NCBI GenBank assembly: GCA_963663895.2
Contig: CAXXRD010000001.1
Location: 448,001 to 512,000, forward strand
Direction of reading: 5' to 3'
From: Dehalococcoidia bacterium
GTDB lineage: Bacteria > Chloroflexota > Dehalococcoidia > Bin125
Length of the DNA stretch: 64,000 bases
The notes under the pieces were generated by a model. That model made no database searches and was not told where the DNA came from. It worked only from the letters and a program-made list of their open reading frames with translations. Of this stretch, positions 6,547 to 15,100 are shown piece by piece (the first letter of the stretch is position 1; every line of letters begins with the position of its first letter). A program made the position numbers and the translations under genes.

Positions 6547-7560
6547 GTGGTAGAGATCACCGTACGCGTACCAGCGATCGAGAAGCTCCTGGACTACTCA
6601 GCGAGCGGCATCGGGAGTATCGCTGGCCCGATGCTTGCGACTTGGCGGGCTAGTAGGGAAGCCGGAGCCAAGAGAATCACTGCAGTAGGCGACGCGGACG
6701 TGCTTGCCATCCTCGCCGGTGGGCAGGCAAGAGCGCTGTCCACCATTGCGGAGGCGCAAGAGAGCGCCCGGAAACATTGGAATGCACCTGATATCGCAGT
6801 CGAGGGCAAGCTCACAATCACTAATGCGGTTGAGCAGCACATGCGCTTTCAGCAAGAGAGGCAGCTGGGGAATATTTCGAATACAGTCGGGCAGGCGGCT
6901 GCGATCCTGACAGATGTCGAAGTCGAGGATCACGAGCCGGATCACGACTGGGCAGCGAGCTTTTTCAATTACGTGCAAGATGTCTCGTCAGAAGAAATGC
7001 AAATCCTCTGGGCAAGGGTGCTCGCCGGAGAGGTGAAGAGGCCGGGCAGCACGTCCATCAAAACCCTTGGCCTATTGCGAGACCTTGATCAAGGCACAGC
7101 CAAATTGTTTCGCAATTTATGTTCCATAGCCATTTTCTATAACGGGCTTCACTATCTGGAAGGCCGGGTGCTCAACTTAGGCCGTCGGGCCAACTGGAAT
7201 GATCTTTCGGAGTATGGGCTACCCTTTGACAGTCTTAATATATTGAATGAGTATGCGCTCATCACCCCTCATTACGATTCGTATCCAGATTACCTCGAAG
7301 GAGCGCCGACTCGCAGTGGTAACGATCTATTCCATGAAATATCAATATACTACCAAGGCCAGCCTTGGATTTTGCAGCACTCATCTCAAGATCCCAGAAA
7401 GGAATTCCCAATGAGTGCAGTGGCAGAACTATTGGCGGGTGTTCTTCTTACGCGATCAGGGGTTGAACTATCTTCCGTGGTCACTATTGAGGAAGCGGCT
7501 GAGTACAACGCTGCGCTGATGGATTTTCTCGATTCAGAACATCTGCAAATGATTAAATGA
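6547..7560 (+). CDS. DUF2806-like protein
   Basis: DW...FF....DVSSEEMQ.LWARVLAGEV..PGS.S..TL signature; starts immediately after the hsdS stop; lower GC. Confidence 0.75.
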   Translation: MVEITVRVPAIEKLLDYSASGIGSIAGPMLATWRASREAGAKRITAVGDADVLAILAGGQARALSTIAEAQESARKHWNAPDIAVEGKLTITNAVEQHMRFQQERQLGNISNTVGQAAAILTDVEVEDHEPDHDWAASFFNYVQDVSSEEMQILWARVLAGEVKRPGSTSIKTLGLLRDLDQGTAKLFRNLCSIAIFYNGLHYLEGRVLNLGRRANWNDLSEYGLPFDSLNILNEYALITPHYDSYPDYLEGAPTRSGNDLFHEISIYYQGQPWILQHSSQDPRKEFPMSAVAELLAGVLLTRSGVELSSVVTIEEAAEYNAALMDFLDSEHLQMIK

Positions 7561-7670
7561 TCGTCATAAGGGTGATTCGGTACCGTCTGCTGTAGCCACT
7601 GCGCAAGGCTGAGGCAACGCCGAGTCCATTGCCTAAGCCATTGCTGAGAATCGGCCAATGAGGTGAATCC

Positions 7671-8057
7671 GTGAAGAAGTGTTGTAAGAACTGCCATTTT
7701 TTGGCGAAACATCACCGAGCTCATGATGGTCAAGTATTCAAGAGCTCATGGAGCGTCGAGGAGCGCTCAGAATTTAGAATAGAAGACCATTACGCTGCGG
7801 AATGCTACAAGGGTGTGTGGAGTACCGGTGTGGACCCCGGCTTGAACTCGCGGCTTGCAGAGATACTATCAAAAGATAGATCGGATGAATGCTTCTTCAT
7901 CGAGACCCGTGATGGAATGCTATTCAAAACGGCTGAGGAGATCTTCAAGATAAGATGCGATAATCGTCAATTACGAACCAGATATCGCTACACTCAAATC
8001 GCTCTCGGAGTCGCTGCTGTTGGTATAGTCGCGAACTTCATATATCAGGTGCTGTAG
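7671..8057 (+). CDS. Hypothetical protein, N-terminal CCxxC and C-terminal TM helix
   Basis: RBS GAGGTG; KCCKNCHF; C-terminal IALGVAAVGIVANFIY. Confidence 0.6.
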   Translation: MKKCCKNCHFLAKHHRAHDGQVFKSSWSVEERSEFRIEDHYAAECYKGVWSTGVDPGLNSRLAEILSKDRSDECFFIETRDGMLFKTAEEIFKIRCDNRQLRTRYRYTQIALGVAAVGIVANFIYQVL

Positions 8058-8070
8058 ATAGTAAAGCGCC

Positions 8071-8210
8071 ATGACTGCTCTCACCGAAGCCGAAATCGAA
8101 GGGGCTGGCCTGGCTGCGGGGCCTGGGTCGGCGGACCGTCCACGGCCCTTCCGCTCGCGCCGGGCGTGTCGGGCGCGAGCGGAAGGGCTACGAGCCGTGG
8201 TCCTGGTGCA
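8071..8210 (+). pseudogene. Decayed hsdR 5'-end copy 1 (frameshifted, internally inverted)
   Basis: ATG ACT GCT CTC ACC GAA GCC GAA ATC GAA...ctggcctggctgcggggcctggg...gtccacggc matches the hsdR start; trailing gagcggaagggctacga..gtggtcctgg matches ERDGYD.VVL. Confidence 0.8.
8145..8188. repeat. Perfect 17-bp inverted repeat (hairpin, possible terminator)
   Basis: gcccttccgctcgcgcc (8145-8161) / ggcgcgagcggaagggc (8172-8188), 10-nt loop. Confidence 0.85.
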
Positions 8211-8216
8211 GAAGCC

Positions 8217-11857: not shown

Positions 11858-12088
11858 CTACTCCCCGGGCCAGGCGCCCCGGCCGGCCCACTCGATCTCC
11901 TCGGTGGTCTGGGGGAACTTCGTGTAGCCCTCCCGGTACCGGCGGGCGATCTCCTGGGCCCGCTTCTCCGCGAGATAGGCGGCGGCGGCCTCGCGCAGCA
12001 CCGCCGAGCGGCCGCGCTCGCGCACCTCGGGCCGCTGGTCGAGCTGCTCCAGCAGATCCTCGTCGAACGTCACCTGTATCGCTTTCAT
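11858..12088 (-). CDS. Ribbon-helix-helix antitoxin
   Basis: IQVTFDEDLL..LD...RSAVLREA; upstream of mazF; leaderless TG-TATCTT -10. Confidence 0.82.
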   Translation of the reverse strand: MKAIQVTFDEDLLEQLDQRPEVRERGRSAVLREAAAAYLAEKRAQEIARRYREGYTKFPQTTEEIEWAGRGAWPGE

Positions 12089-12159
12089 GGATATGAAGAT
12101 ACCACATGTAGAATAGACGCATCATGCGGTACCGGCGGGGCGGGCGGGACGCCGCTCCC

Positions 12160-12165
12160 TAGAAT
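12160..12165 (+). promoter_or_regulatory. -10 element for a probably leaderless hsdR transcript
   Basis: TAGAAT 6 nt upstream of ATG 12172; no SD sequence. Confidence 0.5.
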
Positions 12166-12171
12166 GCGCCC

Positions 12172-15100
12172 ATGCGCGATGCGGGAATCGATGAGGCGGC
12201 CGTCGAAGAGGCGGCGCTGGCCTGGCTGCGGGGCCTGGGCTGGCGCACCGTCCACGGCTCGGCGATCGCGCCCGACAGCCCCGGCGCGGAGCGGGACGGC
12301 TACGACGAGGTCGTGCTGGCGCGGCGGCTGCGGGACGCCCTGGCCGCGCTCAACCCCGACCTGCCCGCCGCCGCCCTGGAGGACGCCTTCCGCAAGCTGA
12401 CCCGCCCGGAAGGGCCGACGCTGGAGGCGCGCAACCGCGCCTTCCAGCGCATGCTGGCCGAGGGCGTGACGGTCGAGTACCGGACGGCAGACGGCGCCCT
12501 GCGCGGGGCGCAGGCCTGGGCGATCGCCTTCGATAATCCAGACGCCAACGACTGGCTGGCGGTCAACCAATTCACCGTCAGCGAGCAGGAGCACGTCCGC
12601 CGCCCCGACATCGTGCTGTTCGTCAACGGGCTGCCGCTGGGGCTGATCGAGCTCAAGAACCCGGCCGACGAGGAGGCCACCATCTGGACGGCCTGGCAGC
12701 AGCTCCAGACCTACCAGGCCGAGCTGCCGGCGCTGTTCTCCCTCAACGCGCTGCTGATCGTCTCCGACGGCGCCCAGGCGCGCCTCGGCACCCTCACCGC
12801 CGGGCGGGAGTGGTTCAAGCCCTGGCGCACCATCGGCGGGGAGGAACCGGCGGACCCCCGCCTGCCCGAGCTGCAGGTGATGCTGGAGGGCGTCTGCGCG
12901 CCCGCGCGCTTCTTGGCCCTGGTGCGCGACTTCACCGTCTTCGAGGACGACGGCAGCGGCGCCCTGGCCAAGAAGATGGCCGGCTACCACCAGTTCCACG
13001 CCGTGCGGGCCGCGGTGGCCGAGACGCTGCGCGCGGCCGCCCTGCAGCGGGCAGCCGCAGGGGTGGCCGAGAGCGAGGGGCGCTACGAGTCGGGCCGCAA
13101 GCCGGGCGGCGATCCCGGCGACCGCCGCATCGGCGTCGTCTGGCACACCCAGGGCTCGGGCAAGAGCCTGACCATGGCCTTCTACGCCGGGGCGATCATC
13201 CGCGAGCCGGCGATGGCGAACCCGACCGTGGTCGTGCTCACCGACCGCAACGACCTGGACGACCAGCTCTTCGGCACCTTCTCCCGCTGCCGGGACCTCC
13301 TGCGCCAGCCGCCGGTCCAGGCGGCCAGCCGGGCCGATCTGCGCCGCAAGCTGGCGGTGGAGTCGGGCGGCGTGGTCTTCACCACGATCCAGAAGTTCCT
13401 GCCGGAGGAGAAGGGCGACCGCCATCCCCTGCTGTCGGAGCGCCGCAACATCGTCGTGATCGCCGACGAGGCGCACCGCAGCCAGTACGACTTCATCGAC
13501 GGCTTCGCCGCCCACATGCGCGACGCCCTGCCCGGCGCCTCCTTCGTGGGCTTCACGGGCACGCCCGTCGAGCTGCAGGACGCCAACACCCGCGCCGTCT
13601 TCGGCGACTACATCAGCGTCTACGACATCCAGCGCGCGGTGGATGACGGGGCCACGGTGCCGATCTACTACGAGAGCCGCCTGGCCCGGCTGACATTGGA
13701 CGAGCGCGAGCGGCCGCGCATCGACCCGCAGTTCGAGGAGGCGACCGAAGGCGAGGAGGTGGCGCGCAAGGAGCGGCTCAAGACGAAGTGGGCGCAGCTG
13801 GAAGCGATCGTGGGCGCCGAGAAGCGGCTGCGGCTGGTGGCCCGCGACATCGTCGATCACTTCGAGGGGCGCGGGGAGGCGCTGGAGGGCAAGGCGATGG
13901 TGGTCTGCATGAGCCGCCGCATCTGCGTCGAGCTCTACCGCGAGCTGGTGCGGCTGCGCCCGGACTGGCACCAAGACGGCGACGACGAGGGCGCGATCAA
14001 GGTCGTCATGACCGGCTCCGCCTCCGATCCGCCGGAGTGGCAGGAGCATTTCCGCAACAAGCCGCGGCGCGAGGCGCTGGCCCAGCGCTTCCGCGATCCG
14101 GCCGATCCGCTGCGGATCGTGCTGGTGCGGGATATGTGGCTCACCGGGTTCGACGCGCCCAGCCTGCACACCATGTACGTGGACAAGCCGATGCGGGGCC
14201 ACGGGCTGATGCAGGCGATCGCGCGGGTCAACCGGGTCTTCAAGGACAAGCCCGGCGGGCTGGTGGTGGACTACCTGGGGCTGGCCCACGAGCTGAAGCG
14301 CGCCCTCGCCACCTACACCGAGAGCGGCGGCAAAGGAGAAACCGCCCTGGACAAAGAGCAAGCGGTGGCGCTCATGCTGGAGAAACACGAGGTCTGCTGC
14401 GCCCTCTTCCACGGCCTCGATTGGAGCACATGGGTGAGCGGAACGCCGCAGGAACGGCTGAGCCTGCTGCCGGCGGCCCAGGAGCGGATTCTGGCGCAGG
14501 AGGACGGCAAGGAGCGCTGTTTGCAAGCCGTCCACGATCTCTCCAGGGCCTACGCCCTGGCCGTTCCCCACGAGGAGACCCGGCGCATCCGGGACGACGT
14601 CAGCTTCTTCCAGGCGGTGCGGGCGGCGCTGGCCAAGCGGGCCGCGGGCGAGGCCCGCCCCGAGGAGGATCTGGACCACGCCGTGCGCCAGATCATCTCG
14701 CGCGCGGTGGCCTCCGAGGGCGTGGTCGACATCTTCGCCGCGGCGGGGCTGGAGCGGCCGGACATTTCCGTGCTCTCCGACGAGTTCCTGGCCGAGGTGC
14801 GGGACATGCCCCATCGCAACCTGGCCGTGGAGCTGCTGCAGCGGCTGCTCAAGGGCGAGATCGCGGCGCGGCGCCGCAAGAACGTGGTGCAGGCCCGCTC
14901 CTTCGCCGAACTGCTGGAGCAGAGCCTGCGCCGCTATCAGAACCGGGCGGTCGAGGCGGCGCAGGTGATCGAGGAGCTGATCCACCTGGCCCGGGAGATG
15001 CGGGAGGCCAACGCGCGCGGCGAGCAGCTGGGACTGTCGGAGGACGAGCTCGCCTTCTACGACGCCTTGGAGACCAACGACAGCGCCGTGCAGGTCCTGG

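Follow-up and report, generated by a model that had tools for sequence, protein, structure and literature searches.

The 64,000-nucleotide (nt) stretch of genomic DNA analysed here, hereafter the window, comes from a Dehalococcoidia bacterium (GenBank assembly GCA_963663895.2, contig CAXXRD010000001.1, positions 448,001 to 512,000) and contains a Type I restriction-modification (RM) operon with embedded cargo: four cassettes lie between hsdS and hsdR, HEPN/MNT cargo lies between hsdM and hsdS, and this content varies among orthologous loci. The four cassettes, which we call bays, are divided from one another by short dead copies of the hsdR start. The stacked structure is real and recurrent, and the recombination mechanism that we propose for it is plausible but unproven. 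Throughout, loci are labelled L0xx and genomes Gxxx, G000 being the source genome and C1 the contig that carries the locus. Gene families in the window were assigned with Pfam and in some cases also with PADLOC, and all gene labels given in an earlier, sequence-only reading of this DNA hold by Pfam. Complete hsdM, hsdS and hsdR genes are present in the one locus, all full length by Pfam, with enzyme activity predicted only.

The sequence-only reading had described four modules that each end at an hsdR start, and we recovered three dead starts (stubs; 8071–8210, 9476–9667 and 11495–11536, all on the plus strand) followed by the intact gene. Bay 1 (6547–8057, plus strand) consists of a DUF2806 gene (6547–7560; Pfam, 2.7e-30) and a 128-codon open reading frame (ORF) without a family (7671–8057), behind which stub 1, detected with the hsdR N-terminal profile, covers hsdR nt 1 to about 140 in a broken frame. 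Bay 2 (8370–9459, plus strand) pairs a DUF433 antitoxin-like gene (8370–9062) with a PIN_10/DUF5615 toxin-like gene (9031–9459), both assigned by Pfam, and is followed by stub 2, which corresponds to hsdR nt 1–192 and forms the left copy of a long direct repeat. After a spacer (9668–9816, plus strand) that has no hsdS-tail signal and no relative in L080 or L085, bay 3 (9817–11498, plus strand) comprises an HTH-Peptidase_M78 gene of the ImmA/IrrE type (9817–10971; RmrA/capP-like according to PADLOC) and a DUF4411 PIN-like gene (10968–11498; Pfam, 6.1e-54). Stub 3 covers hsdR nt 1 to about 39 and ends at the stop of MazF, the first gene of the inverted bay 4 (11533–12088, minus strand), in which a MazF/PemK toxin gene (11533–11853; PemK_toxin, 2e-17) is adjacent to an RHH antitoxin gene (11858–12088; RHH_1). 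Adjacent small genes with toxin- and antitoxin-family domains thus occur in bays 2, 3 and 4, which are predicted Type II toxin–antitoxin (TA) modules. The bays differ in G+C content (46–60%, 60–67%, 57–67% and 70–73% for bays 1 to 4), compared with 70–75% for hsdM and hsdR. A divergent intergenic region (12089–12171) separates bay 4 from the intact hsdR (12172–15342, plus strand; HSDR_N, SWI2_SNF2, T1R_D3-like and T1RH-like_C domains), the first 10 codons of which are atypical and which carries the right copy of the long repeat at 12202–12376. The TAGAAT motif previously proposed as the −10 element of hsdR is present in this region at 12160–12165, 6 nt before the hsdR ATG, as a putative promoter element; a scan of positions 2500–15600 for sigma-70 promoters and terminators was uninformative (0 promoters against 1.3 expected, and 8 terminators against 8.2 expected).

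The evidence for the stubs is strongest for stub 2, whose reported near-identity to the hsdR start was borne out by 94.9% identity over 175 nt (9500–9674 versus 12202–12376), including an exact 73-nt block (9558–9630 and 12260–12332). Using a profile built from the first 80 residues of 13 hsdR alleles, we obtained an E-value of 5.7e-32 for stub 2 and of 1.5e-5 for stub 1 (8102–8194), which had also been named as an hsdR start and in which the frame is lost. Stub 1 is 75.7% identical to stub 2 over 148 nt, and its nt 34–78 are 93% identical to both stub 2 and hsdR. Stub 3 alone (39–42 nt) is not significant genome-wide (E 2.2), and it is the fifth best match of a 16-position hsdR-start profile searched in all six frames of the 2.37-Mb genome, after stub 2, hsdR itself, stub 1 and one place on contig C2. 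That last site (C2:230046–230108) lies outside the locus and is a weak hsdR-start-like match (E 0.002), ranking third with the 16-position profile. A 12-residue regular expression matched only the three stubs genome-wide, but it was written post hoc, and the 16-position profile is the unbiased measure. The coupling of stub 3 to DUF4411 through a GTGA stop/start overlap was confirmed, and the four N-terminal peptides read as previously written.

The stubs of the window are mosaics: the first ~30 nt differ strongly among the four copies of the hsdR start, and past nt ~30 stub 1 (93%, nt 34–78) and stub 2 (95.8%, 168 nt) are closer to the resident hsdR than to any of 30 other alleles. The proposal that each copy derives from a different donor allele consequently holds for the first ~30 nt and fails beyond them, where stubs 1 and 2 are the resident allele, a pattern that fits crossovers inside the repeat.

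Comparison with other loci revealed a feature of the dividers that the sequence-only reading had not seen. Many stubs run directly into the end of an hsdS gene (...LLPRLVSGEVRV, stop), carrying its last 30–120 nt. Clear dividers of this kind were found at L029 6626, L029 8969, L030 8190, L031 9191 and L037 9907, each ending at the hsdS stop codon and each composed of hsdR nt 1–64 to 1–116 followed by the last 29–47 nt of hsdS; in L029 6626, for instance, hsdR nt 1–116 are joined to the last ~46 nt of hsdS. The points at which hsdR switches to hsdS differ from divider to divider, indicating separate events. With an hsdS-tail profile, E-values of 9.7e-12 (L017), 1.8e-7 (L062), 2.8e-5 (L029), 1e-4 (L037) and 5.5e-4 (L022) were obtained; L022 belongs to the same genus as the window and L062 to another class. 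By these joints, the repeated unit is the whole cargo bay, made up of an hsdS 3′ end, the cargo and an hsdR 5′ end, and a divider is the kind of joint that would be left if such a bay were duplicated in tandem, circularised or deleted between operons. In-frame hsdR::hsdS mini-ORFs occur in 4 of 7 dividers inspected, too few to judge a translational relay. A 4-nt stop/start overlap with the preceding cargo gene was found at 10 of 25 stubs, compared with 14 of 24 intact hsdR starts; its retention at stubs as at live starts indicates that the stubs were once working starts coupled to that cargo.

The sequence-only reading had named related metagenome-assembled genomes (MAGs) as the place to look for variation in cassette content, and we found it there: cargo varies among 12 family-level relatives and 11 class-level loci, and stubs recur. 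Counts were made by hand from the tables of two 401-genome samples, one of the class and one of the phylum, with a full-length locus defined by E ≤ 1e-24 and an open frame of at least 800 codons, and a stub as an N-terminal-only piece at most 5 kb upstream on the same strand. Stubs lie upstream in 16 of the 71 full-length loci of this hsdR family across both samples. The class sample contributed 44 full-length loci in 40 genomes, 11 of them, in 8 genomes, with stubs; the phylum sample added 27 further loci, of which 5 have stubs, two being ~680 nt long (L065 and L066). With a single exception, stubs of the class table start at profile positions 1–3, i.e., at the start codon, and their ends fall anywhere between positions 15 and 67. 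Orthologous hsdR genes (72–81% amino acid identity) are present in 12 relatives, and the hsdS–hsdR gap differs in almost every one, the cargo including DUF4365, VapBC, PIN_4, an AAA_21 ATPase, DUF6978+DUF1828, TIR_2, AAA_13 and DUF433+PIN. Among the first 13 loci, extra stubs occur in G008 and G016 and weaker ones in G020 and G001; 8 of the 13 have a single hsdR start, at 72–81% amino acid identity and hence not isogenic with the window. No same-species empty site with one repeat copy was found.

Several of these loci merit description in their own right. In L026 (G008), three tandem ~982-bp units (15530–18066) each consist of DUF6978+DUF1828 and ~80 nt of hsdR start; the units are 75–81% identical, both stubs have identical junctions, and the array may represent an amplified bay. 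In L018 (G010), an hsdR 3′ fragment (residues ~807–898) abuts an hsdM 3′ fragment just upstream of hsdS (14107–14724), possibly a different kind of rearrangement scar left by a neighbouring operon. In the decayed locus L038 (G146; 9356–10755), three hsdR stubs accompany a KwaB-like gene and a PIN gene, the hsdR body is missing, and unrelated metabolic genes come next, on the opposite strand. The hsdR proteins of L042, L050, L051 and L061, from MAGs labelled Anaerolineae, Dehalococcoidia and Nitrospira, are 68–81% identical to that of the window, and by this measure the whole Type I system seems to cross phyla.

Evidence that single bays are exchanged came from cassettes whose identity exceeds that of their flanks. 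Three G246 loci carry a Phd-PIN cassette, as does one locus of G240, which belongs to a different family; it always lies behind a stub. It is 91–92% identical between the two genomes, compared with only 66–69% for the adjacent hsdR; the cargo to its left is unrelated (43–47%, chance level), and similarity begins at the stub start codon. Within G246, L031 and L032 share 99.8% identity across hsdM and the greater part of hsdS, up to the second target-recognition domain (TRD2); TRD2 and the cargo then differ, and from exactly the stub start the two loci are again 99.2% identical. With TRD2 (7837–8299 in this pair) differing together with the cargo, hsdS specificity and cargo may have been swapped in one event. 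In addition, one stub-to-DUF433 junction is common to L028, L036 and the metagenome contig L080, in different downstream contexts.

The cassettes of the window have relatives in comparable positions elsewhere. Homologues of DUF2806 (35–54% amino acid identity) were found in MAGs labelled Chloroflexota, Acidimicrobiales, Gemmatimonadota, Nitrospira and others; in L042, L050, L051, L061 and L062 the gene occupies the same slot with the same hsdR family, and in L051 and L062 a stub lies directly behind it. L023, L024 and L050 have the DUF433-PIN pair immediately before an intact hsdR, and L035 has it before a stub. An hsdR start lies directly behind DUF4411 in 16–17 of 21 metagenome loci (counted by hand) in which ImmA identity is 67% or more and 700 nt or more of downstream sequence is present, and the order ImmA-DUF4411-stub is found in L032 and L085 as well. 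Inverted MazEF between a stub and hsdR occurs also in L063, with 75.4% nt identity to that of the window over 581 nt. In L046 (5237–6966), on a Chloroflexota MAG contig, MazE-MazF genes with 65% and 77% protein identity to those of the window are followed by a weak hsdS tail (E 0.08) and DUF2806, so that this contig places two of the window's cassettes side by side, in a different order. A homologue of the 128-codon ORF of bay 1, 47% identical, occupies the same place at L064 (9470–9853; G728), after hsdS and before a stub. This ORF, which has a Cys-rich N-terminus and a hydrophobic C-terminus and falls into no Pfam or PADLOC family, is a candidate for a defence gene of a new kind.

To account for these observations, we propose that the hsdS–hsdR interval would be a cargo slot that became multiplied into four bays, each with a TA or abortive-infection-type module. 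A stub would be born in a rare illegitimate, microhomology-type joint, in which cargo plus an hsdR start, often led by the last 30–120 nt of hsdS, joins into the first ~40–200 nt of the resident hsdR, so that the former start is cut off and an entire hsdR remains downstream of it. Such a joint could have one of three sources: a bay duplicated in tandem, a bay that arrived in circularised or linear form out of another Type I locus, or a deletion between adjacent operons. From then on, the stubs, together with the hsdS 3′ and hsdR 5′ ends, would serve as homology arms, at which RecA-type recombination with other Type I loci could add, replace or delete single bays without an integrase. We consider it fairly probable that the dividers arose from rare illegitimate joints and that homologous recombination subsequently swapped bays. 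Most of the cargo genes share one orientation, and translational coupling to the hsdR start is frequent, so that the cargo probably rides on operon expression as a set of back-up defences.

A number of observations weigh against this account. Homologous recombination itself was inferred and not observed, as were the direction of the pathway and any ongoing activity in this organism. The bay replaced between L031 and L032 lies far from hsdR, which argues against a strict order of arrival and breaks the rule that new cassettes always enter next to hsdR. Neither protein nor DNA profiles detected an hsdS tail behind stubs 2 and 3 of the window or behind either G008 stub, and the possible decayed hsdS 3′ tail behind stub 1 (8264–8326, plus strand) is marginal, with an E-value of about 0.1 (0.096 by nhmmer with an hsdS 3′-end profile; 0.57 with a protein profile at 8260–8304) at a position that matches the clear tails elsewhere. 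A DNA search of 400 class genomes with positions 6547–12400 returned no copy of any window cassette above 80% nt identity, the best matches being 76% for MazEF, 67% for ImmA/DUF4411 and 66–71% for DUF433/PIN, and the metagenome collection contained no exact match to a 24-nt junction-side pattern taken from the PIN 3′ end; given this lack of close copies, recent movement of the window's cassettes is not demonstrated. The hsdR 5′ end is also no more conserved than the rest of the gene. It is not a specially conserved target: column identity is 0.64–0.72 for nt 1–90 and 0.57–0.84 further in, and the 5′ end is just the first point of homology behind unrelated cargo (0.28–0.31 upstream). Most stubs are shorter than 200 nt, for which the mechanism offers no explanation, and those of L065 and L066 reach ~680 nt; our guess is survivorship, with long repeats being lost by collapse and long pieces of HsdS or HsdR perhaps being deleterious. 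Finally, G246 alone supplies 4 of the 44 class loci and is listed with 11% contamination, and related genomes are not independent samples.

The dividers could alternatively be the remains of tandem, complete hsdM-hsdS-cargo-hsdR operons fused by deletions that began early in one hsdR and ended late in the following hsdS, taking the redundant R, M and S genes with them and merging the cargo. Such a deletion would leave exactly the hsdR 5′::hsdS 3′ dividers seen, some genomes do contain several loci of the family (four in G246 and two in G316), and the hsdR 3′/hsdM 3′ fragments of G010 could be the scar of a neighbouring operon. Fusion does not explain the dividers that lack an hsdS tail (window stubs 2 and 3, and G008), the Phd-PIN cassettes that are far more alike than their flanks, or the near-constant shortness of both retained pieces, and no tandem complete pair was present among the loci inspected, though no search aimed at such pairs was made. 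We regard operon fusion as unlikely.

We give still less weight to a strictly local origin, in which a bay was duplicated in tandem and the copies diverged without any contribution from other loci. The three-unit array of G008, with its identical stub junctions, has the form that this process would produce, and stubs 1 and 2 of the window do carry the resident allele beyond nt ~30. Duplication alone, however, cannot yield four cassettes of unrelated families and differing G+C content, and the first ~30 nt of each stub are strongly different, which makes this explanation quite improbable.

Integron-like capture, through a recombinase with a fixed target within the hsdR 5′ end, would account for the array layout, with each cassette ending in a repeat, and for the fact that all stubs begin at the hsdR start. 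Stub ends, by contrast, fall anywhere from nt ~39 to ~200, with two loci reaching ~680, and the hsdR-to-hsdS switch points vary as well. The earlier description of the stack as integrase-free was upheld: no Phage_integrase (PF00589) or Resolvase (PF00239) match lies within about 375 kb of the locus on contig C1, where the nearest Phage_integrase match is at 72,004–72,528 and the locus at about 450,700–463,340, so that no tyrosine or serine recombinase is near, and no mobility domain was found by Pfam in the cassette ORFs. No recombinase was present among the picked ORFs of the relatives' loci, apart from an insertion sequence (IS) transposase in L028 and a weak IS200-like match in L016. The lack of a nearby recombinase and the variable junction positions make site-specific capture very improbable; it is largely refuted by the variable ends and the absence of a linked recombinase.

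We also considered the possibility that the stack is an assembly artefact, in which strain variants with different cargo were stitched together at shared hsdR 5′ sequence. Four public runs from one study (X1–X4) were used, as contigs rather than reads, and these may include the source of the assembly. Contigs without a single difference, from two samples, cover 5997–9587, 9615–10374, 10455–11648, 11619/11623–12289 and 12260–12445; a contig from X1 extends from 9615 to 10419 with 7 differences, and X3 and X4 gave scattered short pieces only. Every junction is thereby reproduced except the interior of the long repeat. Two features of these data count against our reading and would fit an artefact: short-read contigs break at the exact 73-nt repeat and cannot phase its two copies, and contig depths in X2 are ambiguous, falling from 11.2–13.8 left of the repeat to 5.9–8.2 within it and to its right with no clean return, so that they support no conclusion. 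Similar architecture in the single-contig genomes G008, G156, G265, G362, G602 and G728 argues against a general artefact, and stubs 1 and 3 have no long identical partner to cause a mis-join; the chance that the stack is an assembly product is very slight. The joint expected from excision of a 2,702-nt segment was absent among the 15 joints listed of 50, and the sole hint of amplification is the three-unit array in G008.

The remainder of the operon lies upstream of the bays, all on the plus strand. The ORF listed for hsdM spans 2728–4521 (N6_Mtase, 4.7e-104, and HsdM_N); relatives align from residue ~42–85 on, and by this alignment the true start is probably the ATG at 2896. Between hsdM and hsdS lies a HEPN-type nucleotidyltransferase substrate-binding gene (4539–4961; NTase_sub_bind, 3.2e-34), followed by a single ORF (4954–6546) in which a minimal nucleotidyltransferase (MNT) domain (residues 10–95) is joined to HsdS (residues ~102–528), as supported by Pfam matches to Polbeta/NTP_transf_2 and Methylase_S and by the PADLOC Specificity_I model (2e-91). 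The same arrangement, an MNT antitoxin-type domain joined to HsdS with a HEPN-type gene just upstream, is found in L021, L022, L024, L031–L033, L042, L050, L051, L062 and L064. The join is spanned by tblastn matches in many orthologous loci and is split in two in L065, and the PADLOC Specificity_I model PDLC03138 matches residues 1–119 of the ORF, indicating that the fused form is already in the library. The second target-recognition domain of the window's hsdS (6000–6450) has a G+C content of 47–51% in an operon of 70%.

Two elements of this picture have precedents, namely defence genes embedded in Type I operons and insertion with long target duplication, and the stub-divided stack is a new form of these. 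Integrons, which also build arrays, use the tyrosine recombinase IntI and structured attC sites, and their arrays consist of small, promoterless, mostly co-oriented cassettes linked to a promoter. The bays resemble them in this layout, in being bounded by a repeat-like element and in their variable content, and differ in that no recombinase is present, the 'sites' are hsdR and hsdS gene ends of variable length, and a homology-based mechanism is proposed.

Insertion with long target duplication is said to have been treated in an earlier paper by Nobusato et al. in 2000. The passages of the later study drawn on here describe integrase-free inserts with 30–420-bp direct repeats, often spanning a gene start or stop, that leave the target gene intact (Furuta, Abe & Kobayashi 2010, PMC2853133). 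The window is alike in having a 175-nt repeat pair around the 2.5-kb ImmA-DUF4411-MazEF block, with repeats longer than 30 bp that derive from the target, and in having no integrase or transposase in the insert, stubs 1 and 3 corresponding to shorter or older copies. It differs in that, as far as those passages go, the cargo there is an RM system entering varied targets, whereas here an RM gene is the target and TA/defence modules are the cargo; the serial events at one site and the many hsdR-hsdS chimeric junctions seen here have no counterpart in them, and arrays are not described there.

Defence genes embedded in Type I operons include PrrC in the EcoprrI operon (EcoSal review, PMC12707154) and TgvAB in Vibrio cholerae VPI-2 (PMC11411939), and 'guilt-by-embedding' has been applied to such genes (Payne et al., preprint, 10.1101/2024.01.29.577857). 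The window shares with them non-RM genes between hsd genes, mostly in operon orientation and variable in content. In the portions consulted, those papers treat content and function, and stubs, dividers and stacking are not described; the methods of Payne et al. excluded systems with pseudogenes, and the main text of the preprint, taken without its supplements, contains 0 matches for 'recombination', 'remnant' or 'hsdR'. The cargo families themselves, DUF433-PIN_10, HTH-DUF955(ImmA)+DUF4411 and PIN-type modules, have been predicted as TA systems in a paper that also includes a section on PIN-like toxins and RM operons (Matelska et al. 2017, PMC5499597); the sections used here classify the same families and do not deal with their stacking in one operon. 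A full-text literature search, with supplements and subscription journals outside its scope, found nothing on serial hsdR stubs or hsdR-hsdS dividers.

The entry of cargo into such operons, and the piling up of several systems without a mobility gene, is not addressed in those parts of the literature that we examined. Searches for new defence systems now make use of such nesting. The stubs and chimeric dividers are physical records of the events by which cargo was joined, and they point to a homology-based way, open to testing, in which defence cargo could turn over. Orphan hsdR starts, whether or not an hsdS tail follows, provide a simple sequence signature for cassette boundaries in genomes and metagenomes, and their existence is a caution for annotation pipelines that drop loci containing pseudogenes. 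The repeats predict that defence content will be unstable and strain-variable. Going further, the stubs and the hsdS and hsdR ends might constitute an integrase-free, homology-based system of capture and shuffling that operates widely, across several phyla, in the Type I loci with this hsdR family and is still active through RecA-dependent insertion, excision (for example, of a 2,702-bp ImmA-DUF4411-MazEF circle) and amplification of bays, a tentative proposition that we think more doubtful than probable. If it is true, such shuffling would make defence content vary within populations, with recombination in the role that the integrase has in an integron.

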